DNA from: Promethearchaeota archaeon
GTDB lineage: Archaea > Asgardarchaeota > Lokiarchaeia > Sigyniarchaeales > SOKP01
Assembly: GCA_048941015.1 (NCBI GenBank)
Contig: JBHLNZ010000046.1
Span: 1-24,663 of the forward strand
Reading direction: 5' to 3'
Length of the DNA stretch: 24,663 nucleotides
Part shown: positions 1,318 through 15,434 of the stretch, piece by piece
How the letters are laid out: each line of letters begins with the position of its first letter
Position numbering within the stretch: position 1 is the first letter of the stretch
Program-made: the position numbers and the translations under genes
Notes under the pieces: model-generated
The model's input: the letters and a program-made list of their open reading frames with translations, nothing else
Databases searched by the model: none
Told to the model about the DNA's origin: nothing

Positions 1318-2997
1318 TTACCTATGGCTCTTTTTCAAAGCTAGTCTGTGAATTTTCCCTATGGCAGTTCTTGGTAATACTTGTATAAATTGAATTTGGC
1401 GTGGATATTTATAGCCTGCCATGTTTTCTTTTGCCCATTCTATGATTTCATTTTCAGTAATTTTCCCAACATAATCTCTTTCGAGGACTATAAATGCTTT
1501 AATAGTTTCCCCTATATCTGGATCAGGAACTCCTACTACTCCTGCAGAAGATATAGCGGGATGCTCTTCTAACTTTTCTTCAACCTCTTTAGGCATAACC
1601 TTATATCCTTTATACTTTATTATATCCTTCATACGCCCCTCAATATAGAAATAGCCGTCTTCGTCTATTCTTGCAAGATCTCCCGTTCTTAGCCAACCAT
1701 CTTCAGTAATTACTTTTTTTGTAGCTTCTAAATTATTCCAATAACCTTTCATTACCTGAGGCCCTCTAATTAGCAGTTCTCCTACTTCTCCGGGGTTTAA
1801 TTCGTTAAAGGTTTCAGGTTCGATAATTTTCGCATCAGTATTTAGAAGAGGAATTCCAACACTATTAGGTTTGATTTCTGGAAGCCATGCCGTTTGCATA
1901 TGTGTAACAGGCGATGCTTCAGTTAATCCAAAACCTTGAGCTACTTTTATATCATTTGTACCTTGGGCCCATTTTTGGGCAATTTCAGGAGACAAAGCTG
2001 CTGATCCTGAAATAGAACCTTCTAAAGATGATAAATCGTACTTGTTGAAGTCAGGATGGTTAACTAACATTTGAAACATAACTGGAACTCCCGTAAATAA
2101 TTTTATCTTATAATATTGAATAAATTTCATGACTTTATTTGGATTAAAATCTCCCATCATTATCATCATTGAACCTACAATTAAAGAGACTATAGCAACT
2201 GTGAATCCAAAAGTATGACATAAAGGTAATACCGCTAGCGTAGCTTCTCTCCCTATTCCTTCGCTGTAACGAGCTTTATTCATATATAGAATATTTAATA
2301 CATCTGATACAATATTCTCATGGCTAAGCATTACCCCTTTAGGTAAACCTGTAGTTCCACCGGTATAAAGCAATGTTGCTATATCATTTAATGGATCAAT
2401 TGTAATTTTCGGAGGAGATAAAGAAGAGGATTCATTTATAAAATCTTGAATCGTAATAGTGCCTTCTTTAGCTTCAGAACTACCTATTAATATGATATTA
2501 TCAATATTTACGTTTTTCATTGCTTTTTTAATTGTTCTATAGTTTTTACTGTGAACAAAAATAGTATTAATAATTTCAGAATCTTTAATAATATGAACCA
2601 CATCACTCTCATTTAAAAGAGGATTTATAGGTGTCACTGAAGCTCCTGTTTGCATTATTCCTATTATCGAAAAAATGAATTCAGGCACATTTTCGGTCAT
2701 TATAGCAACTGAATCCCCCTTCTTTACATTTATTCTTTGGATTAGTGCATTTGATATTTTATTGGCATGGATTAAGGTTTCTCGATAAGTATATTTCCTT
2801 TCATCAGGAACATAATACATAGAAACAGTAGTAGGATACATTTCTGCCGCTAATCTAATTAAATCATGAACGGTTATTGGATCATATTTAATAGATTTAG
2901 GTATTTCATTGGGATAATGTTTTAACCAGAGCCTTGCTTGATCTACCCAAGGTGCCCAATTCTCAAAATCTTCAAAAATATTTAGTCCTTCAATCAA
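1318..2997 (-). CDS. Long-chain-fatty-acid--CoA ligase (AMP-forming acyl-CoA synthetase, FadD/LcfB-like)
   Basis: Adenylate-forming motifs YTGGTTGLPKG, GFGLTE, GELLIRGPQVMKGYW, RTGD and C-terminal PRTAIGK. AGGAGA RBS 5 nt before the TTG start. Confidence 0.92.
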   Translation of the reverse strand: MIEGLNIFEDFENWAPWVDQARLWLKHYPNEIPKSIKYDPITVHDLIRLAAEMYPTTVSMYYVPDERKYTYRETLIHANKISNALIQRINVKKGDSVAIMTENVPEFIFSIIGIMQTGASVTPINPLLNESDVVHIIKDSEIINTIFVHSKNYRTIKKAMKNVNIDNIILIGSSEAKEGTITIQDFINESSSLSPPKITIDPLNDIATLLYTGGTTGLPKGVMLSHENIVSDVLNILYMNKARYSEGIGREATLAVLPLCHTFGFTVAIVSLIVGSMMIMMGDFNPNKVMKFIQYYKIKLFTGVPVMFQMLVNHPDFNKYDLSSLEGSISGSAALSPEIAQKWAQGTNDIKVAQGFGLTEASPVTHMQTAWLPEIKPNSVGIPLLNTDAKIIEPETFNELNPGEVGELLIRGPQVMKGYWNNLEATKKVITEDGWLRTGDLARIDEDGYFYIEGRMKDIIKYKGYKVMPKEVEEKLEEHPAISSAGVVGVPDPDIGETIKAFIVLERDYVGKITENEIIEWAKENMAGYKYPRQIQFIQVLPRTAIGKIHRLALKKSHR

Positions 2998-3273
2998 AAA
3001 AATCTCCTATATTTTCACTCATTATTAAATTAAAAAAAGTTCTTAACTTTGATTTGTAGACTTTAGTATTTAATCCTTTTTCCTTTATCTAATATATTTA
3101 CAATTTCGTCAGAATAATAGTAGAAAATTTTTCCTAAATTCTTCTATTAATTGATTAATAGGGCTATTAATCTTTTATATTAACTATTATTATATAGATT
3201 ACCTTCAGATAACTTTAAATAGGTAAATCATTACGTATATTCTTAAGGTAAGGAGATCCAAATTTATTAGGAG

Positions 3274-4968
3274 TTGAAAGTAGTAATGCGAAAAAGAACA
3301 GTTTTAATGATATTATTTGTTGTAATTCCAGTTAGCATTCAATTATTCGGTATACCCTTTTTAGGAGTTTCGTTTTCAAACCATGACATCGAATTCAATT
3401 ACGTATACGATTGGAATTTGAGAGGTACTGGTGGATGGTACGAAGGTTATAAAGAGAAATTTAGGTCTAATGGCCATTATACGGTAGATTTTAGTGGAGA
3501 TATCGCAATTGTAAATGCTGAAGTAAAATGGAAATTTGTTAGCAGATTGTTTGGTTACATTGAAGAAAGTTACGGTAGTGATGAGATTTATACATTTACA
3601 TATTCATTAATTAATGGTAGCTATCTATCTGGAACAGATCAAGATTATAATACTTCTGGTATGAACGTTTGGTTTCATATTCCTCAAGGATTAACTGGAT
3701 CAGAATATTCCTTGCTTGAAAGTAATTATACTAAATTGGGCACGGATATAATTTGGGTAGGCCATTTAATGCCATTCACTGGAATTAAACTGCGGGATAG
3801 TGGTGAATATTTTAGAGATGATATTTATGGTGAATTTGATGCTGAATATACTGTAGATAATTATTTTACAAAAAGTGGGTATTTAATAGGAGAAGTTTAT
3901 ACTGAATACGATGTGGGAGAAGATAGAGACACAGGTTATGATTCTGAGTTTGCAATCAAATCTTATGTTTTTATTACATCAGCAAGTTATCTTAGACCAT
4001 TTAATTTTGGAATTTATTTTATGGCATATTGGTTCCATATCCTTTTTTTCTTGGTCCTTTTCTATGTAGTCTACGAGCATTACAGATGGAAACAATTGAT
4101 TATCTCTAAAACACCTCCTTCGGAATCAATAATTATCGAAAAAAATCTTCCGAGAAATCTTCAATTCTCAATAAAGTCTGCTTATTCAGATATGATTCCA
4201 ACATTTTTAGTGAGAGGGAGAGCTTATGGAAAATTGATAATTACTGCACATACGCAAGAAGAGATTAAAGGCATTGGTTTCATTGAAGAAAATGGTAAAG
4301 TTGGTACTTTTTATGGCACATATGCAGAAGCGATGATTCAATATGCAAAAGTGAAATATGCATTTACGGAGATTAATAGAATCAGTGGATTTAAATTAAT
4401 TGAAAAATTTGACGTTTTTCAGATAGAAAATCTGCACTATATTGATTTGAATTATGATGCTTCTCTAATTAAACCTGTAACTAACCAAGATCTTCCTGAA
4501 TTAACCAGAATGATTGCTTATGAGGATTATGGAAAACCTAAGAAAAAATATGCTAAATGGGTACTAAAGGCAGTAGAAAATGATATAGCGTTGATTGCAA
4601 CAGCATCCCCTCGAGAAAGTTGGACTCGGGATATTATGTCTGATATAAATAGACGAAGATATCCTAAACCACAAATCCTTTTAAGTGATATCATTATTGG
4701 TATGGGTTTTGCAACACCTGGAAAAGATACTGGATGGCTTTATGGATTATACGTTCATCCGGCATTTAGAAATCAAGGAATTGGAAGTACACTTGTAAAG
4801 GCTCGCTTATCTGCTCTTAAAGAAATGGGTTGTGACAAAGCTATAACGGAAATAGCAGAATGGAATGGTCCAGCGAAAAAAATTTACCATCAATTTAATG
4901 CTCAAATTATTGGAGATATTAACTTACTAGGAACCAAGATGCCAAAAGTACGTGTGAGGCGATTTTAA
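3274..4968 (+). CDS. Membrane-anchored GNAT-family N-acetyltransferase with an extracytoplasmic domain (two TM segments)
   Basis: Hydrophobic N-terminus (aa ~10-30); Tyr/Gly/Asp-rich region with N-x-S/T sequons (NGS, NTS, NYT); second TM at aa ~243-268; C-terminal GNAT motif A (LYVHPAFRNQGIGSTL) and motif B (NGPAKKIY). The real start may be ATG 3286. Confidence 0.8.
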   Translation: MKVVMRKRTVLMILFVVIPVSIQLFGIPFLGVSFSNHDIEFNYVYDWNLRGTGGWYEGYKEKFRSNGHYTVDFSGDIAIVNAEVKWKFVSRLFGYIEESYGSDEIYTFTYSLINGSYLSGTDQDYNTSGMNVWFHIPQGLTGSEYSLLESNYTKLGTDIIWVGHLMPFTGIKLRDSGEYFRDDIYGEFDAEYTVDNYFTKSGYLIGEVYTEYDVGEDRDTGYDSEFAIKSYVFITSASYLRPFNFGIYFMAYWFHILFFLVLFYVVYEHYRWKQLIISKTPPSESIIIEKNLPRNLQFSIKSAYSDMIPTFLVRGRAYGKLIITAHTQEEIKGIGFIEENGKVGTFYGTYAEAMIQYAKVKYAFTEINRISGFKLIEKFDVFQIENLHYIDLNYDASLIKPVTNQDLPELTRMIAYEDYGKPKKKYAKWVLKAVENDIALIATASPRESWTRDIMSDINRRRYPKPQILLSDIIIGMGFATPGKDTGWLYGLYVHPAFRNQGIGSTLVKARLSALKEMGCDKAITEIAEWNGPAKKIYHQFNAQIIGDINLLGTKMPKVRVRRF

Positions 4969-6173
4969 TGAAAGTAATGAATATATTAGATTCAAATTCA
5001 TATGAAAATCACTTAATGCACTCTACAAATTTAGAACTTTATGAATCTGATTCGGAAAACATTGAAATAAATCCCCAATTTAAATATCTTAAGAAATGGA
5101 TTAAAACATATCTTGGTCCAGCAACAGCAGAATTTCATGAATTCAAAAACAATAAACATCTAGCAATTAGAGATGAAAATCGAAATGCAATAATCCCTAA
5201 ACTTAATACTGAGATTAATGGTAAGAAGTTTTTCTTAGCTGTTAAAGGTTGTGGAGCCTATGAAGATATGTTTTTTGGGGGGGCACTTAATAGATTAGCC
5301 ATAAGAAGAGCTTGTAGAGATTTTTCTTTACTAAGCAAAGTAGAGAGATTATCTACAGGTTTAGGTTTTATTATGTCAGAATCTTGGATGGGAGAGAGTC
5401 CTTATGGAGCACAAGGAAAAATTAATGGATTTGATGAATTAAATTTCTCAAAATTAGCAAATCTTGATTCTATAAATGGTGCTCATATTTGTCCAGCTAT
5501 AGCAGTAGTACAATTGCCAAAAAAAGTTGAAGAAGTAGCTCGAAAGTTTTTTTGGTTTCGAAGATATAAGGATCATTTCTATCAAGTATTACGGTTAATA
5601 CCATCTAATGTAAGACTGTATTTTGAATCCAACCACACAATTTCTAATCCAGCTTCTCTTTTTTCTCTTTTTGGAATTAATGATACCAAAAAGTTAGAAG
5701 AATTTGAGTTAAATTTCATTAAAAGTGGTATTGCGTTGCTCTCATTATATATAAGGTCAGCTAGGATTGAGAATGGAGAAGTGGCTGGAATAATTTATCA
5801 AGATGTATGGTTAGATAAAGATTGTGTGGTAGCACCAAATGGAACTATTCATTTTACTGATATAGAAGGTTTAATTTGGCAGAAAGTACCATTAAATAAA
5901 TTTACTGAAATTCAGAAAAAAGAATGGCAAAAATTAGTCTTTGAATTCCTTTTTGCCTTATTTCAAATAGATTCTTTTCGACATATAAAAGATGGAATTC
6001 AACTCTCATGGTCAAAACAAAGGGAAGAATTAGCTCTTCTTATTCAACTTGCTTTGGATAATGATATATTTGCATATACAAAAAATCAAAATAACGACCT
6101 AATTATTGTACTTGAAGAGCCTTCATTACCAATTTTAGAAATACCAATTATAGAAAAGGTGAAATCTGCATGA
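4968..6173 (+). CDS. Hypothetical protein with SelO/YdiU-like (protein-kinase-fold) motifs
   Basis: 401 aa ORF overlapping the upstream stop (TAATG). Motifs AVKGCG, G-x8-E (YGAQGKINGFDE), RLIPSNVRL and LDKDC...FTDIE occur in the order expected for the SelO/kinase fold. Confidence 0.55.
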   Translation: MKVMNILDSNSYENHLMHSTNLELYESDSENIEINPQFKYLKKWIKTYLGPATAEFHEFKNNKHLAIRDENRNAIIPKLNTEINGKKFFLAVKGCGAYEDMFFGGALNRLAIRRACRDFSLLSKVERLSTGLGFIMSESWMGESPYGAQGKINGFDELNFSKLANLDSINGAHICPAIAVVQLPKKVEEVARKFFWFRRYKDHFYQVLRLIPSNVRLYFESNHTISNPASLFSLFGINDTKKLEEFELNFIKSGIALLSLYIRSARIENGEVAGIIYQDVWLDKDCVVAPNGTIHFTDIEGLIWQKVPLNKFTEIQKKEWQKLVFEFLFALFQIDSFRHIKDGIQLSWSKQREELALLIQLALDNDIFAYTKNQNNDLIIVLEEPSLPILEIPIIEKVKSA

Positions 6174-7654
6174 ATTGTGAAAGAGCTTTAGAAATATTAG
6201 AATCAATTAAAAATAGGCAAGAAATTCTAACTTCTTATGAAGAAATTACAGATTTAATTAATAGTGCTTTGATTTCCGAGTATAAAGGATCAGGAATAGA
6301 TAGAAACCTAGAAGCTGAACTCGAACATCTTAAAGATCAATTTAATACTTTAAGTGGAGATCTACGTGATTTATCAAAGGAATTAATTTCAATACAAGGA
6401 GAATATGATAATTTAGGGCTTATTTCAAGACTTTTCAGTTATATAAAAATAGGAATCGGCAATAGCTTAAAAAGAGAAATAAATGAATTGAAAAAATTGA
6501 TTAGTGCTAAAGAATCCGATCTACTTAATATAAAAAACAATTTGCTAAATCTTAATGATATTAAAAAGAATTTAGAACAAGCTGTTAAAGTGAATGGAGT
6601 AAAAGTGTTCTTAACTCCTTTTGGTGAAACTATGATCGATGAAATAAAAGCTCGAAAAAGATATTATTCAAGAGATTTAAAAGATTTGAGAGAAGTTCTA
6701 AGACGCCTTGATAACGAATTTACCAATTTAATTAGCAAAGTACAAAGATTGATGATGGGGAGCGTTTTTTCAGCGATTTGGGCAGTGTATTTAATTAATT
6801 CGAATAATGAGCATTTAAAAAATGCATTTAATGCAATAACTAACAGTGACTATAATTATAAAAACTCAGAAAAAAGGATGATGAAACTTTCCTTAAATAT
6901 CTTGAAAGATCCAAATATAATAATGCCTCGAACTAATCGTCAAGTTAAAGTAATTGAGAATGAAATGAAGTATGCTTATCGTAGCAATAATCCTTCTAAT
7001 GAAATTGAGAATAAATTTTTTGCTCAAGGTTTATGGCCTTCTGGAGTTAACAAAAGAACCATCTCCCTTTTAGGAAAAATTTTCTCTGCTTGGGATTCAT
7101 ATCAAACTGCAGACATCTTTGAAGGAGATAAATATCTCGAAAATTTAAGCACACTTATAAAAACTGAACATTATAAAAAATTAGGGGAACCACGGTATGA
7201 TGAAGAAGTTATGTATAGTTTAATGATATTAGCTTTATCACCTAACATTTCCAGTTATGATTATTTTCATAATTTTGTGAAAGATATCCCTGAAGTTGCT
7301 AAATTTTATTCAAGTATAGCAACTTTATTCCCCTGGGATCCTGAAGAAACCTGGATGATTCTTCTTAGAGCAGAATCAAACATACTTAAAGCTCAGAGTG
7401 CAAAATTTATTCCGGAGTTAATCGAATATGCTCTTTTATTATCTATGAATCCTCAAATTTTAACAATCGAAAACAATCTTTCGCAAGATGATCTTTCAAG
7501 ATGGCAACATTTAATAATTCCAACAGTTCACCTATTTATGTATTCCTTCTTAGAAAAAGATTTAGAAAATTACATAAGAAGAAGACCTCTAGCTTATATC
7601 ATCTCACCAAGATATTATGTACATTCTTCACTGCATTATCATGTAATCGGATAA
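6170..7654 (+). CDS. Hypothetical protein: N-terminal coiled coil (possibly inserted in a winged helix), helical C-terminal domain
   Basis: 494 aa, ATGA overlap with the upstream gene, AGGTGA RBS 7 nt before ATG. Leu heptads at aa ~45-140, flanked by DLINSALISE and VFLTPFG. Confidence 0.75.
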   Translation: MNCERALEILESIKNRQEILTSYEEITDLINSALISEYKGSGIDRNLEAELEHLKDQFNTLSGDLRDLSKELISIQGEYDNLGLISRLFSYIKIGIGNSLKREINELKKLISAKESDLLNIKNNLLNLNDIKKNLEQAVKVNGVKVFLTPFGETMIDEIKARKRYYSRDLKDLREVLRRLDNEFTNLISKVQRLMMGSVFSAIWAVYLINSNNEHLKNAFNAITNSDYNYKNSEKRMMKLSLNILKDPNIIMPRTNRQVKVIENEMKYAYRSNNPSNEIENKFFAQGLWPSGVNKRTISLLGKIFSAWDSYQTADIFEGDKYLENLSTLIKTEHYKKLGEPRYDEEVMYSLMILALSPNISSYDYFHNFVKDIPEVAKFYSSIATLFPWDPEETWMILLRAESNILKAQSAKFIPELIEYALLLSMNPQILTIENNLSQDDLSRWQHLIIPTVHLFMYSFLEKDLENYIRRRPLAYIISPRYYVHSSLHYHVIG

Positions 7655-7675: not shown

Positions 7676-7692
7676 TTTTTATCTTTTTTTTT
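7676..7692 (+). terminator. Oligo-T tract, putative archaeal intrinsic terminator of the three-gene operon
   Basis: TTTTTATCTTTTTTTTT about 20 nt after the stop, in the gap between convergent genes. Confidence 0.4.
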
Positions 7693-7765: not shown

Positions 7766-9433
7766 TTAATTTATTTCTCTTAGGAAATCTGTTGGTAGTT
7801 CATATTTCATTGTATTGTAAAATATTGAGTAATATTTCTGAAAAAATTCTTCTTTTTTATTTAATACAGAAGGTTTTTTCTCAATTTTAGCTCGACCCTT
7901 AGACCAGAAGAGTTTACCATTATTTTTCAAGTTGAAATTATTTCCTTTTTTAATTATTTTACCTTCTTTTATTACGAATTCAATACTTCTGAATGAATTA
8001 GCTAATTTTAGGTATTCTTTACTTAAATTAGTTTCATTAATATTTATATTCAATATATTTAGATCACCATCAGAACCAAATCCTAAATTACCTTTATAAG
8101 ATCCGATACCCAAAGATTTTGCCGGACTAGCTCTAGTCAATATAACTATATCATTGAAGTTTAGTTCTTTATTAGTATTTATTAGGTGATGATTCTTTAT
8201 TGATTCTTGATTTAAATCTTTCATGAAGTTAGTTCTTGCTTCTTTACTTACTAACCAAGTTATAATTTCGGGGATATCTTCTACCATAGCATAATTAGGA
8301 AAGTTGATTGAGAATTGAATTTGCCAAATGTTTTTAATATTTAGTGCCAAATCCAAAGCATTAGCCCAGATATTAGTATGATTTTTATTTTTTTTATCAA
8401 ACGTTCGAAATGTTGCAAACGTATCACCTTCGAACTCTACAGCGGATCTAATTAATTTAAATGGATTCGCATTGTTTTGTAGTAAATTTATTAACCGACG
8501 ATCATCTGTTATTAACGGATTGATTTCATTAAATCCACAGAACCCTAAATCTAAATCAAACTTGTCATTGTTATTTAACAAATTTACAATATTGTTATTA
8601 TCTCCATCTATATTATAAGAAGAAGCATGTGCTAAATGCATTATTTGATTTCTCTCAAATTTTGAAGTAGTTGGCGAAATTGAGGTTAAATCAAGAGATT
8701 GAATCTTTTCTATCAACTGATTTAAATTTTTTTTCCCTTCTGTATTTTCATATCCTTCTATATGGGCATGAATAGAATGTGGTAATTTTAATTTCTCATT
8801 GTATTTAATGAATTTTTCATAGATATCTATTGGGTTAAAATTGTAAAGTCTGCCCTTTTCAGAAAGATTTTCTCGTAATTTTTGGAAATTCCAGTTTTCT
8901 GCCTCAAACGGATTATATACCTTAAAACCAAATCCTTTAGTTATTTCTAAAAGTTCTGATAAAAATATGGTTGCTTCTTCTTCCATTCCTCTTTGAAATT
9001 CTAACTCTAAAGGCCAATAATTACTCAAATTTAATAAGATGGCTTTATCAAGAACAGGAATTTGTTTTAAGTTAAAAATTGTATGTTTAACTAATGATGG
9101 AAATACATTAGCCTCAAGGATAAATGTAAAACCATTTGATATATAGGATTTTGCAATGCTTTCAAAAGTTAAACCTTTCCATCCTTGCTTAAATTTAGCA
9201 TTGTTTATGCCTAGTAATCTTATCCAACTTAATTGTTGTGATGCTACATGTGAATGAATATCAATTGCTGATGGTATGACTGTTTTCCCTTTTACATTAA
9301 TTTCTTTTACATCTTTTTCATTAGAAAATTTTTCAACAATTTTACCTTCTTCAATTAAAATATCTTTTATTTCACCAGCTAAATCATTAAAAGGATCAAA
9401 AATAAACCCATTTTTTAGTAATAGTTTACTCAT
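7766..9433 (-). CDS. fwdA: Formylmethanofuran dehydrogenase subunit A-like amidohydrolase (divergent)
   Basis: LKNGFIFDP N-terminus, DIHSH, FKVYNP, LPHSIHAH, HLAH and TRASPAKSLG; 555 aa; downstream of fwdB/fwdD-like genes. Canonical TTDHPN reads SINFPN here. Confidence 0.85.
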   Translation of the reverse strand: MSKLLLKNGFIFDPFNDLAGEIKDILIEEGKIVEKFSNEKDVKEINVKGKTVIPSAIDIHSHVASQQLSWIRLLGINNAKFKQGWKGLTFESIAKSYISNGFTFILEANVFPSLVKHTIFNLKQIPVLDKAILLNLSNYWPLELEFQRGMEEEATIFLSELLEITKGFGFKVYNPFEAENWNFQKLRENLSEKGRLYNFNPIDIYEKFIKYNEKLKLPHSIHAHIEGYENTEGKKNLNQLIEKIQSLDLTSISPTTSKFERNQIMHLAHASSYNIDGDNNNIVNLLNNNDKFDLDLGFCGFNEINPLITDDRRLINLLQNNANPFKLIRSAVEFEGDTFATFRTFDKKNKNHTNIWANALDLALNIKNIWQIQFSINFPNYAMVEDIPEIITWLVSKEARTNFMKDLNQESIKNHHLINTNKELNFNDIVILTRASPAKSLGIGSYKGNLGFGSDGDLNILNININETNLSKEYLKLANSFRSIEFVIKEGKIIKKGNNFNLKNNGKLFWSKGRAKIEKKPSVLNKKEEFFQKYYSIFYNTMKYELPTDFLREIN

Positions 9434-9437
9434 TATA

Positions 9438-9812
9438 TTAAATCCCCTTAATCTTATTTATTAAATCATTAAATCGTGAAATTGGGTTTGTAGTAGGCTC
9501 TATTTTTACTTTAAGGTTTTTATAGATAATCTCATTATCTTTAACTGTAGTTAATTGATTTGACCATATTGAAACTGGCATTTGGACCATTCCAAGGGGA
9601 ATATCTTCTTCTTTTTCGACTTTAACTATAATATCTCCGTTTTCATTAAAAATTTTCAAGTTATCATTAGTTTTTAATTCTAATTTGTTATAATCTTCTG
9701 GATTTAGAAATGCAATTGCTAAATTTTGTTCTAAAGTATTCTCATCTCCAAAAGTAAATTCTTTGGCTTGATCATTATCCACCATCCTTACTATATTTAA
9801 CATGCACTCCAC
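9438..9812 (-). CDS. fwdD: Formylmethanofuran dehydrogenase subunit D-like (molybdopterin dinucleotide-binding domain)
   Basis: 124 aa; LNPEDYNKL...NENGDIIV...GMVQMPVSIWSNQL...YKNLKVKIE matches the FwdD pattern; GGGTGA RBS; lies between fwdB and fwdA. Confidence 0.8.
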   Translation of the reverse strand: MECMLNIVRMVDNDQAKEFTFGDENTLEQNLAIAFLNPEDYNKLELKTNDNLKIFNENGDIIVKVEKEEDIPLGMVQMPVSIWSNQLTTVKDNEIIYKNLKVKIEPTTNPISRFNDLINKIKGI

Positions 9813-9815
9813 TTT

Positions 9816-11120
9816 TTATTCACCCTTTTCTTCTACTTTTTTAATAATACTACTTAACAAGGATTCATCCGAAGGAATATTACTTGGAGGATTAATAATT
9901 TTTTTAAGTTGAATTGGCACGTGATCAAGTCTAAATGCTAAACCTTCACATTCAATTCCAGTTATAGCAGTTGGTAATACAACATCAGCTATATTAAAGG
10001 TTGCCGATTTACGATTATCAATAAGAATTATAGGTTTTTGTGCTAGATTTGAGCTTAAATTATATGGTAAATGTGAAATTGCATCGGTACCTACGATGAT
10101 AGAGCAATCAAAGTCTCTACTGGCAATTTTAGATACTATATTATTTTGACTTTGAATTAAATTTCCCTTAGAAAATTCGATTCCCTGATTCTGTCCAGTA
10201 AAAGCTAGAGCCACGTGATCAAAACCATTCATATTAAAATGGCCACCTAATAATATAGTAGTAATTCTCCCTTTCTTTTGTTTCGAGTTAGCCATTTCTA
10301 ATAATTCTAAAAATTCCTTGATCACATTAGAATCTGATTGGCTTTTTAAAACTCCTTGACCAATAAACACTACACCATATTCTGCTTCTGTTAAATGTAA
10401 TATTAATCTTTTGAGGTCATTTCTATCAATACCTGCAACTCCTTCTGTGGGAGTACTGTCAGCAACACAACATTCTTCTTTAAGAGTATGAATCAAATCT
10501 ATGTCCTTATCTGTTTCAATCTGTAAGGCTAAATCTCGTACACCCATAACCCTAAAGGATGCTGTTTTGACAGGATCTATAATAACTAAGGTTTTAATCT
10601 CCCGGCCAGTCATTCTGAATTTACCTCTTGAGAATAGCGTTTTGTTCAGAAGACGAGGGATTGACTCAGCGGGATTAGCACCCCAAAGGACTATTAAATC
10701 TGCTTTATTTATCACTTCTGTAATAGTACTCAATGTTAACCCAGTTTTTACTGATTCATTTAAAACTTTTCCTTGACAAATCGATGCATTAGAATCAATA
10801 AAACCGTTAATATGTCTTGCTAATTCAAGACCCTTTAATTGAGCTTCACATGATACATTAGAAAAACCATATAGTAATGGTTTTGATGAGTTATTAACAA
10901 TATTTAATGCTTTATTTAAGGCTTCTTCCCATGAGACTTTTATTAAATTTCCATTTTTTCTAATCATTGGACTTAATATTCGATTTTTAGCAATTACCTG
11001 ATCAAAACGTTCTTTTCCTTTTAAACAAGCACCAAAAACCTCATCTATAAAAATTCCATCTGTTCTTATAATAATATCATCACAGAGTAAAGAACAGCCA
11101 GAACAAGGTATTCTCTTCAT
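9816..11120 (-). CDS. fwdB: Formylmethanofuran dehydrogenase subunit B-like (divergent)
   Basis: N-terminal CSGCSLLCDD...AC 4Fe-4S motif, DSNASICQG, ADLIVLWGANP, GGHFNMNGF and GLAFRLDHVPI; 434 aa. Confidence 0.88.
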   Translation of the reverse strand: MKRIPCSGCSLLCDDIIIRTDGIFIDEVFGACLKGKERFDQVIAKNRILSPMIRKNGNLIKVSWEEALNKALNIVNNSSKPLLYGFSNVSCEAQLKGLELARHINGFIDSNASICQGKVLNESVKTGLTLSTITEVINKADLIVLWGANPAESIPRLLNKTLFSRGKFRMTGREIKTLVIIDPVKTASFRVMGVRDLALQIETDKDIDLIHTLKEECCVADSTPTEGVAGIDRNDLKRLILHLTEAEYGVVFIGQGVLKSQSDSNVIKEFLELLEMANSKQKKGRITTILLGGHFNMNGFDHVALAFTGQNQGIEFSKGNLIQSQNNIVSKIASRDFDCSIIVGTDAISHLPYNLSSNLAQKPIILIDNRKSATFNIADVVLPTAITGIECEGLAFRLDHVPIQLKKIINPPSNIPSDESLLSSIIKKVEEKGE

Positions 11121-11157
11121 TTTTATTTATACCTTTTTTTTAATGTTAAGATATTAA

Positions 11158-11652
11158 TTATACATATTCAATTTTAATTGCCTCACGTGGACAATACGTT
11201 TCACATACCCGACATTCCCTTTCTCTCCCTTCCGCTTCTAATCTTCTACAATGTTCAAGGTTTAATAATTCACATTTGCCCTTTTTAACTTGAAAAAGTT
11301 GGTGTTTATCAGGAGGATAGTCTGGAGCCTTTCCACTTAAAGAAGGGGGGCAGTATCTGGCATTAACAGGACATACAGTTACACATATTCCACAACCATC
11401 GCATATTTCTTCATCAACATTAATTTTTAGTTCTTTTTGCTTCCCTTCTTCAGAACCAAGTAATTCTTTCAATTGTTCATACTGTTTTTTATACTTTGAT
11501 TCCAAAAGAGGTGGACAATCATCAACCTTAACTTTCCCTTGAAGCAAATCTAAAGCAAAAGCCATACAAGTTGGTTTTCCACATTCTTTACAATTTGTTT
11601 TGGGCAGATATTTATAGAGTTCCATAAAGTTTTGGACTGGAATTAATTTCAC
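11158..11652 (-). CDS. Fe-S protein: N-terminal FeS domain (AcsC/RnfB-type) fused to a FwdG-like 2x[4Fe-4S] ferredoxin
   Basis: LPKTNCKECGKPTCMAFA...CPPL, then CDGCGICVTVCPVNA and C-x11-CRVCETYCP. First gene of the fwd cluster. The start may be ATT 11643 or ATG 11625. Confidence 0.85.
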   Translation of the reverse strand: MKLIPVQNFMELYKYLPKTNCKECGKPTCMAFALDLLQGKVKVDDCPPLLESKYKKQYEQLKELLGSEEGKQKELKINVDEEICDGCGICVTVCPVNARYCPPSLSGKAPDYPPDKHQLFQVKKGKCELLNLEHCRRLEAEGRERECRVCETYCPREAIKIEYV

Positions 11653-14665: not shown

Positions 14666-14879
14666 AAATATATTGCTATATTAATTAAACACTTTCTACT
14701 ATAAAAATTTAATGATAATAGAATAAAACATGAAAACATTTAGTGTTTTGAAACAATTTTTAAATTAATATGTAAAATTTTAAATAAAAAAATATAATTA
14801 TAAAGAATTACTACCATTTTGAGGTTAGGGATAATTTTAAAAATTACATATCGCATCATGATAATTGAATTTTAACAAT

Positions 14880-15434
14880 ATGTACGCATTAAACTATAAA
14901 ATATATAAGATCTGCATCGTTGGGGATGGCGCAGTCGGAAAAACTACTATTTTACATCAATATGTAGACAAAAAGTTTAAAGAAGACACTTTATTGACGA
15001 TAGGAACTAATTTCTTCATGAAAGAGTTGATTTTAAAAGAGTTTGATGCAGACATTAAATTACAAATCTGGGATCTTGGAGGACAAGATCAGTTTGCCGC
15101 AGTTCGTCCATCTTTTTATGCAGGTGCTAAGGGAGTCATTTATACCTTCGATTTAACGAGAATTGCTACTTTTAATAATTTATTAATTTGGAAAAATGAA
15201 GTTGAAAACGTAATTGGAAATAAAGTAGCAAGTATTTTAGTTGGAAATAAGTTGGACTTAGTGAATGAAACAAATAGAAACGTGAATCTTGAAGACATTT
15301 TAATTCTAAAAGAAAAACTAGGAGTTAAAGAATATTTTGAAACTAGTGCTAAAGAAAATGTAGGTATTGATAATGCTTTTCGAAGATTAGCAATTGATAT
15401 ATATAAATCATTATCACCTCATTCATTAAAATAG
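14880..15434 (+). CDS. Rab-like small GTPase (Ras superfamily, Asgard type)
   Basis: G1 GDGAVGKT, G2 TIGTNF, G3 KLQIWDLGGQ, FYAGA, G4 GNKLD, G5 ETSAK; no C-terminal Cys. The ORF track starts at TTG 14865; ATG 14880 is more likely. Confidence 0.92.
   Translation: MYALNYKIYKICIVGDGAVGKTTILHQYVDKKFKEDTLLTIGTNFFMKELILKEFDADIKLQIWDLGGQDQFAAVRPSFYAGAKGVIYTFDLTRIATFNNLLIWKNEVENVIGNKVASILVGNKLDLVNETNRNVNLEDILILKEKLGVKEYFETSAKENVGIDNAFRRLAIDIYKSLSPHSLK

Follow-up and report, generated by a model that had tools for sequence, protein, structure and literature searches.

What do three overlapping genes, for a membrane-bound acetyltransferase, a kinase-fold enzyme and a helical protein with a conserved C-terminus, do together in an archaeal cell? 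The genes lie at positions 3274-7654 of contig JBHLNZ010000046.1 (assembly GCA_048941015.1), from a Promethearchaeota archaeon of the class Lokiarchaeia; the window is the whole stretch of DNA that was analyzed, 24,663 nucleotides long. A sequence-only reading of the window had proposed that the triad is a candidate undescribed system, made up of a receptor-like GNAT, a SelO- or kinase-like enzyme and a coiled-coil protein. We found no description of the triad in literature searches, and Pfam, NCBIfam and PADLOC gave it no name; as that reading had suspected, it maps to no named system. The cassette is undescribed, and its retention as a set in four archaeal lineages and some bacteria points to an unknown protein-modification system. 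Its genes are the following.

3274-4968, + strand: gene 1, a bitopic membrane GNAT of 564 amino acids counted from TTG 3274 (Pfam, hydropathy and homologue alignment)
4968-6173, + strand: gene 2, a soluble SelO-like kinase-fold enzyme of 401 amino acids (alignment A1, AlphaFold2 model and structural match)
6170-7654, + strand: gene 3, a helical protein of 494 amino acids (AlphaFold2 model and alignment A2)

The layout described in the sequence-only reading, three open reading frames (ORFs) joined by TAATG and ATGA overlaps, with a divergent upstream region and an oligo-T end, was recovered when the junctions and T-runs were read directly. In TAATG the stop codon of gene 1 (TAA, 4966-4968) shares a base with the ATG of gene 2 (4968-4970); in ATGA the start of gene 3 (ATG, 6170-6172) overlaps the stop of gene 2 (TGA, 6171-6173). 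Shine-Dalgarno-like motifs, GAGG and GGTGA, occur 8-9 nt 5' of the two internal starts. Translational coupling at these junctions would cause the three proteins to be made together. For gene 1 itself, ATG 3286 (residue 5, MRKR...) is a likelier start than the TTG 3274 of the ORF call: it is the first codon of the ESM Atlas record and has an AGGAG ~14 nt upstream.

The three genes adjoin in every relative that has any of them, so their adjacency is far beyond chance. Of the 121 genomes from this class, 28 have gene 2, 29 have gene 3 and 28 have the N-terminal part of gene 1. The three share the same 27-28 genomes and are adjacent on the same contigs, the sole mismatches being fragments at contig ends. 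The sequence-only reading had asked whether homologues of the triad co-occur elsewhere; they do, and in several phyla. A scan of one genome per species returned 278 loci, and for the best 80 of these, ORFs were called and compared with profiles of the four modules. Enough flank was available at 70 of these loci, and 69 of the 70 contain the full set of modules; the module-complete loci come from Promethearchaeota, Thermoplasmata, Bathyarchaeia and Nitrososphaerales. A fused gene 1 is followed by genes 2 and 3 in 34 loci. In another 33 the order is gene 2, gene 3 and a gene for the outside-transmembrane part, with the GNAT encoded on the opposite strand. Two loci have fused gene 1 followed by gene 2, with a divergent gene 3 below the profile threshold. 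Separately, L004 has a third gene order and a split gene 1. The fused form was also identified in Sandaracinaceae (Myxococcota) and on two bacterial-type contigs. Searches of the ESM Atlas gave one archaeal hypothetical cluster at a TM score of 0.51, probably of the same family, and were otherwise uninformative. Co-inheritance is strict across phyla and gene rearrangements. In four archaeal lineages and in bacteria the linkage has persisted although genes were fused, split, inverted or reordered. We consider this strong evidence that the triad is one functional unit, and near the strongest that comparison can offer.

Gene 1 can be divided as follows.

3292-3378, + strand: first transmembrane segment, residues 7-35 (hydropathy)
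~3379-3999, + strand: outside domain, ~210 amino acids (hydropathy)
4000-4077, + strand: second transmembrane segment, residues 243-268 (hydropathy)
4078-4965, + strand: cytoplasmic part (hydropathy)
4678-4896, + strand: GNAT core, residues 469-541 (PF00583)

The two transmembrane segments from hydropathy and the Pfam GNAT match agree with the outside domain and inside acetyltransferase first seen in the letters, and a receptor-like topology with a cytoplasmic GNAT is supported. The PF00583 match is 2.1e-12, at 47.8 bits where the cut-off is 20.7. RNQGIGS is the form that the acetyl-CoA motif R/Q-x-x-G-x-G/A takes here, and most homologues keep the motif. The N-terminus is basic, and all three N-x-S/T sequons fall in the ~210 residues between the transmembrane segments. 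In a word-based search of 5.8 billion proteins, all 47 matches to this outside domain were fused to this GNAT, and a PDB sequence search returned no match to it. Alignments with bacterial and with split homologues of gene 1 cover its full length. The split form in L004 consists of an outside-transmembrane protein of 364 amino acids and a cytoplasmic GNAT of 258. The stand-alone outside-transmembrane protein (L004:4479-5573) has a C-terminal Cys-x-x-Cys ... Cys-x-x-Cys motif suggestive of a small zinc ribbon on the cytoplasmic side, whereas the fused forms are without it.

Gene 2 has both the kinase-like fold and the SelO-like motifs that the first reading had attributed to it. The closest solved relative of its AlphaFold2 model (predicted local distance difference test score, pLDDT, 93.6; predicted TM score 0.91) is P. 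syringae SelO (6eac_A), with a VIA-align Z of 15.1-15.2 and a root-mean-square deviation of 4.1-4.2 over 259-264 aligned residues. VIA-align was run two ways, on Foldseek candidates and exhaustively against 48,161 PDB representatives. The runners-up are synthetases of nonribosomal peptide synthetase-independent siderophores (NIS synthetases; Z 10-12.8, with 11.7 the next best value in the exhaustive pass), and ordinary kinases score ~9. Foldseek also ranked SelO/YdiU first (E 3.6e-4).

The conserved residues point the same way. Close homologues number 105, most of them from Asgard metagenome-assembled genomes and 50-97% identical; distant homologues, at 23-35% identity, occur in other archaea and bacteria. 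Alignment A1 has 25 invariant positions, including N71, R72, K93, G94, G96, E138, W140, Q206, R209, P212, S213, R216, D279, W281, D283, K284, D285, D298 and E300. Compared by eye with E. coli SelO, the invariant residues fall in SelO-like motifs in identical order: DxNRxA corresponds to GDGRA, VK93GCG to LK107GAG, R209-xxPSxx-R216-xxFE to R170-VAPSHL-R177-FGHFE, and D298-I-E300-G to D256-Y-G. The second arginine is 69 residues from the catalytic-loop aspartate in both proteins (R216-D285 in gene 2, R177-D246 in SelO). In E. coli SelO, K107 is the beta3 lysine, and R170 and R177 are the arginine pair that holds the flipped ATP; K93, R209 and R216 would be their counterparts in gene 2. The SelO motif assignment was taken from PMC12599244, Table 1. 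Motifs and model together indicate that gene 2 probably works like, and descends from, a SelO-type enzyme. Given that the charged set of invariant residues is intact, we infer an active enzyme rather than a dead scaffold.

Gene 2 is nonetheless outside PF02696 as that family is defined. We found nothing for it in Pfam, NCBIfam, PADLOC or a PDB sequence search, the A1 profile had no PDB sequence match, and hhalign against one SelO sequence gave a probability of 0.3%. Canonical SelO was not found in this genome, nor in 81 Asgard genomes sampled. The family is small: a set of 1.84 billion proteins contains only 147 clusters of it at 50% identity. Weak full-length matches to the gene 2 profile (~440-490 amino acids) were considered as SelO and rejected, as they are not Pfam SelO. 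Remoter branches of the family (P0281 and P0346) occur outside triads. A P0281 member in another archaeon (L028/L029:6001-7900; E 1e-21 to the profile) has no GNAT with it; it overlaps a 234-amino-acid gene without a family assignment, and genes for eIF-1A and RNA polymerase lie close by.

The third protein is divided as follows.

6170-6280 and 6584-6613, + strand: winged-helix-like N-terminus, split (AlphaFold2 model)
6293-6580, + strand: coiled-coil hairpin (AlphaFold2 model)
6617-7564, + strand: helical domain (AlphaFold2 model)
7574-7651, + strand: disordered tail rich in Tyr, Ser and His, with the end SSLHYHVIG-COOH (AlphaFold2 model and alignment A2)

The model of gene 3 (pLDDT 84.3) displays the winged-helix-like start and the long coiled coil that had been read from the sequence. 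Residues 1-37 form two helices and a strand, 42-137 an antiparallel coiled-coil hairpin of ~95 amino acids, 139-148 two strands, 150-465 the helical domain and 469-494 the disordered tail. A winged helix-turn-helix would have a three-helix bundle with a recognition helix and a beta wing; the model instead has two helices and one strand, then the inserted hairpin and two more strands, a domain seen only within the whole model. Pfam, NCBIfam and PADLOC give no family match beyond coiled-coil noise. With the whole model as query, Foldseek returned nothing from the PDB at E <= 0.001 and the VIA-align matches were confined to the coiled-coil hairpin; such whole-model searches barely probe the helical domain, for which a known fold is possible.

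Could gene 3 be a DNA-binding winged-helix regulator whose activity genes 1 and 2 control by acetylating or AMPylating it, so that the cassette is a transcription switch? The helix-helix-strand, hairpin and two strands of the model are followed by a basic stretch (IKARKRYYSR), and helix-turn-helix regulators are among the weak atlas rows. However, the two N-terminal helices are acidic (4 K/R versus 8 D/E in residues 1-40), there is no canonical three-helix helix-turn-helix, and the whole-model fold searches gave coiled-coil matches only. We consider such a switch very unlikely.

The C-terminus of gene 3 is its other distinctive feature. The terminal residue is Gly in 99 of 102 homologues, and the three exceptions are partial proteins. 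Across phyla the tail ends in Gly in 72 of 74 cases, always after His-x-His. The motif reads SSLHYHxIG in Lokiarchaeia, HP(A/G)H(V/A)HGxGGFxG in Thermoplasmata and Bathyarchaeia, and THPxHxHTVxxFG in Methanomassiliicoccales. Harpocratesius-type lokiarchaeal proteins (L001:9343-11106, and L059/L061) have an extra low-complexity stretch of ~90 amino acids, rich in Tyr, Arg, Gly and Ser, which precedes a conserved SSLHHHSIG end. Complex prediction for the gene 2 and gene 3 proteins gave a score of 0.00, which, run without controls, counts neither way.

We tentatively favor, at somewhat less than an even chance, a membrane-anchored protein-modification cassette, with the tail protein as the target of both the SelO-like enzyme and the GNAT. 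The GNAT of gene 1, dependent on acetyl-CoA, would be tethered to the membrane and face the cytoplasm, while its system-specific domain of ~210 amino acids on the outside may connect the cassette to an outside cue. Gene 2 would be catalytically competent, a relative of the SelO/YdiU AMPylases that has diverged very far from them and most likely transfers a nucleotide monophosphate (or phosphate) from a nucleotide bound in the SelO orientation. Gene 3 would act as an adaptor and, most likely, as the substrate that both enzymes share; the site that is modified or docked would be its disordered tail, rich in Tyr, Ser and His and always with the end His-x-His...Gly-COOH.

Several results weigh against this proposal. 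The nearest solved relatives of the gene 1 GNAT are generic GNATs, headed by a diamine acetyltransferase, an enzyme with small-molecule substrates, and for this reason its acceptor cannot be named. The gene 3 tail is without Lys, hence there is no obvious GNAT target in it. Where the SelO catalytic loop reads HGVMNTDN, gene 2 has QDVWLDKD, and the chemistry may differ; of the aspartates of the SelO catalytic loop and DYG/DFG motif gene 2 keeps only the later one (D298), and D279, D283, K284 and D285 are invariant in its loop. Pfam gives gene 2 no PF02696 match at E <= 1. Finally, hhalign of 71 gene 2 relatives against nine SelO proteins reached a probability of only 2.6%, which is not significant, although it pairs K93 with K107.

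A bolder proposal, which we regard as doubtful, is that the cassette represents a new prokaryotic trans-membrane signaling or tagging machine. A receptor-type acetyltransferase and a rewired SelO-like enzyme would write a two-mark code on the His-x-His...Gly adaptor tail or, more radically, the terminal Gly would be activated and attached to a membrane or protein amine. If true, either version would amount to a way of tagging that uses AMP and has no relation to ubiquitin, common to Asgard archaea, Thermoplasmata, Bathyarchaeia, Nitrososphaerales and some Myxococcota.

Gly activation can be spelled out as an alternative of its own. Gene 2 would adenylate the terminal Gly carboxylate of gene 3, and the membrane-bound GNAT-fold enzyme would join it to an amine of a lipid head group or protein, in a way analogous but unrelated to ubiquitin/Atg8 tagging. 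Such a role would suit a final Gly found in essentially every complete homologue from archaea and bacteria, the tethering of the GNAT at the membrane, and a gene 2 fold that resembles both AMP-transferring SelO and carboxylate-adenylating NIS synthetases. Yet it has no precedent, no beta-grasp fold, Gly-Gly or E1-like enzyme accompanies it, the GNAT retains a normal acetyl-CoA motif, and the conserved His-x-His is left unexplained. We therefore view it as highly improbable.

The resemblance to NIS synthetases also suggests a pathway for a small molecule or metal. In this case gene 2 would adenylate a carboxylate as the NIS siderophore synthetases do, the GNAT would acylate an amine in the manner of IucB or the acyltransferase domain of DfoC, and gene 3 would bind a metal with its His-rich tail, which has an invariant His-x-His. 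Among structural matches the synthetases AcsD, SbnC, AsbB and IucA rank second (Z 10-12.8, with 270-290 residues aligned), and in DfoC (5o7o, a Foldseek match) an acetyltransferase and an NIS synthetase are naturally fused. The closest solved GNAT, a diamine acetyltransferase, and the metal-cofactor genes that the cassette adjoins in lokiarchaeal genomes would fit as well. On the other hand, gene 2 has no IucA/IucC (PF04183) match in Pfam and has the SelO-specific KGxG and RxxPSxxR motifs, and the metal-gene neighbors are not retained beyond one lokiarchaeal family. A 494-amino-acid helical protein and the outside domain would also be left unexplained. We judge a siderophore- or metal-related role decidedly unlikely.

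The features that flank the cassette are the following.

2998-3285, no strand assigned: divergent AT-rich intergenic region of ~280 bases, a putative promoter region (read directly)
7676-7692, + strand: T5 and T9 runs, a candidate archaeal oligo-T terminator (read directly)
7766-11652: convergent Fwd-like cluster of amidohydrolase, molybdopterin-binding, molybdopterin oxidoreductase and iron-sulfur proteins

The upstream neighbor of gene 1 is a divergent gene for an AMP-binding enzyme (1318-2997, minus strand). TATA-like octamers in the region between them, e.g., TTTAAATA at 3214-3221, are candidate promoter elements. The T-runs, at 7676-7680 and 7684-7692, lie 22-40 nt past the gene 3 stop (7652-7654), in the gap common to gene 3 and the convergent gene at 7766-9433, and likely form a putative oligo-T terminator of the archaeal type. 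Further downstream, among iron-sulfur and metal-cofactor genes, is a small GTPase of the Ras/Roc/Arf type (14865-15434; Pfam Ras, 8.7e-42), a protein typical of Asgard archaea. The Ras-family GTPase in the window and the Promethearchaeota-type names of close relatives indicate a Loki-type Asgard archaeon as host, in line with the Asgard-like archaeon of the sequence-only reading.

The cassette adjoins the same Fwd-like cluster in 8 of 11 lokiarchaeal loci, and the opposite flank varies. A functional link between the two was considered and set aside: the cluster is convergent. Because it is missing beside the cassette in other lokiarchaeal lineages and in other phyla, the adjacency looks like inherited synteny rather than a functional link. 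Within the class the triad is patchy. It was identified in 17 of 34 genomes of the same genus, 8-9 of 37 of a sister genus and two of three of a third genus, and was not found in the 22 other genera sampled. In a cassette-free genome (G031) a 226-amino-acid flank gene directly adjoins the FwdA-like gene, and in G058 the triad and two further genes lie between the same flanks; this comparison implies that the cassette was gained or lost as a block. In two cassette-free genomes of the same genus, the contig stops 0-700 bp from the FwdA-like gene (G015:C50 and G025:C30, loci L121 and L119), and these contig ends coincide with the cassette site in relatives. Where present, the triad shows about the same conservation as the metabolic genes beside it (61-69% for gene 2, compared with 66-70% for the FwdB-like protein). 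The best explanation is that the cassette is self-contained, vertically kept yet dispensable.

Patchiness, gain or loss as a block and occurrence in both archaea and bacteria would also be expected of an antivirus or conflict system. A membrane sensor could switch on an AMPylase, an acetyltransferase or both as toxins, in the style of abortive infection or of a toxin-antitoxin pair, with gene 3 as regulator or antidote. GNAT and AMPylating enzymes are known toxin chemistries (TacT/AtaT, Fic/HipA-type). Against this, PADLOC-DB 2.0 gave no hit for genes 2 and 3 and only a chance-level Cmr5 match for gene 1 (E 0.028), and the flanks examined contain no consistent defense or mobile-element genes. 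Moreover, the proteins evolve as slowly as those of the adjacent metabolic genes, and the locus is single-copy and syntenic beside the Fwd-like cluster in most lokiarchaeal loci. A defense role appears unlikely.

The cassette opens the question of what divergent SelO-like enzymes do, whether there are receptor-type acetyltransferases in prokaryotes, and what purpose an invariant His-x-His...Gly C-terminus may serve. The size of all three proteins suits direct biochemistry.

How does the cassette compare with known systems? The GNAT and SelO-like kinase folds are familiar, whereas the way they are combined has no described match, and neither has the outside domain or the tail protein. SelO/YdiU (PF02696; 6EAC, 6K20 and 6LNA) is the closest comparison for gene 2, which shares its protein-kinase-like fold (Z 15.2) and, judged by eye and by spacing, probably also the KGxG lysine, R-x-x-P-S-x-x-R followed by F-E, the DFG-like Asp, and DxNRxA in the place of GDGRA. 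Unlike SelO, gene 2 has an insert of ~50 amino acids after the lysine strand and a distinct loop, and it is always encoded with a membrane GNAT and a tail protein. Neither its sequence nor its profile is significantly similar to SelO, and it ends without the C-terminal domain and the Cys/selenocysteine tail of that enzyme (401 versus 478 amino acids). NIS synthetases with GNAT partners (IucA/IucC with IucB, and the DfoC fusion) likewise pair an ATP-using kinase-like palm with an acyltransferase. Their likeness to gene 2 is limited to this common palm and ranks below that of SelO; the cassette has SelO-type motifs and a large helical partner, and is without IucA/IucC or FhuF domains and nearby siderophore genes.

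Ubiquitin-like, Atg8 and Pup tagging offer an analogy only, that of an invariant C-terminal Gly encoded beside a putative adenylating enzyme. Gene 3 differs in having no beta-grasp fold or Gly-Gly (it ends ...HVIG), no E1 or ligase homologues accompany the triad, and no E1-like gene was identified in the window. GNAT toxin-antitoxin pairs (TacT/TacA and AtaT/AtaR) and known defense systems share GNAT chemistry, a small operon and patchiness with the cassette, whose proteins are much larger, with a membrane-bound GNAT, no PADLOC match, slow evolution and a syntenic locus. Sensor-linked protein acetylation is known from the cAMP-regulated acetyltransferase MtPat/Rv0998, in which, as in gene 1, a GNAT is fused to an input domain, putative in the case of gene 1. 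The gene 1 domain differs in being outside the membrane, in having no known fold match by sequence and in occurring only in this system, and its enzyme always travels with two further proteins.

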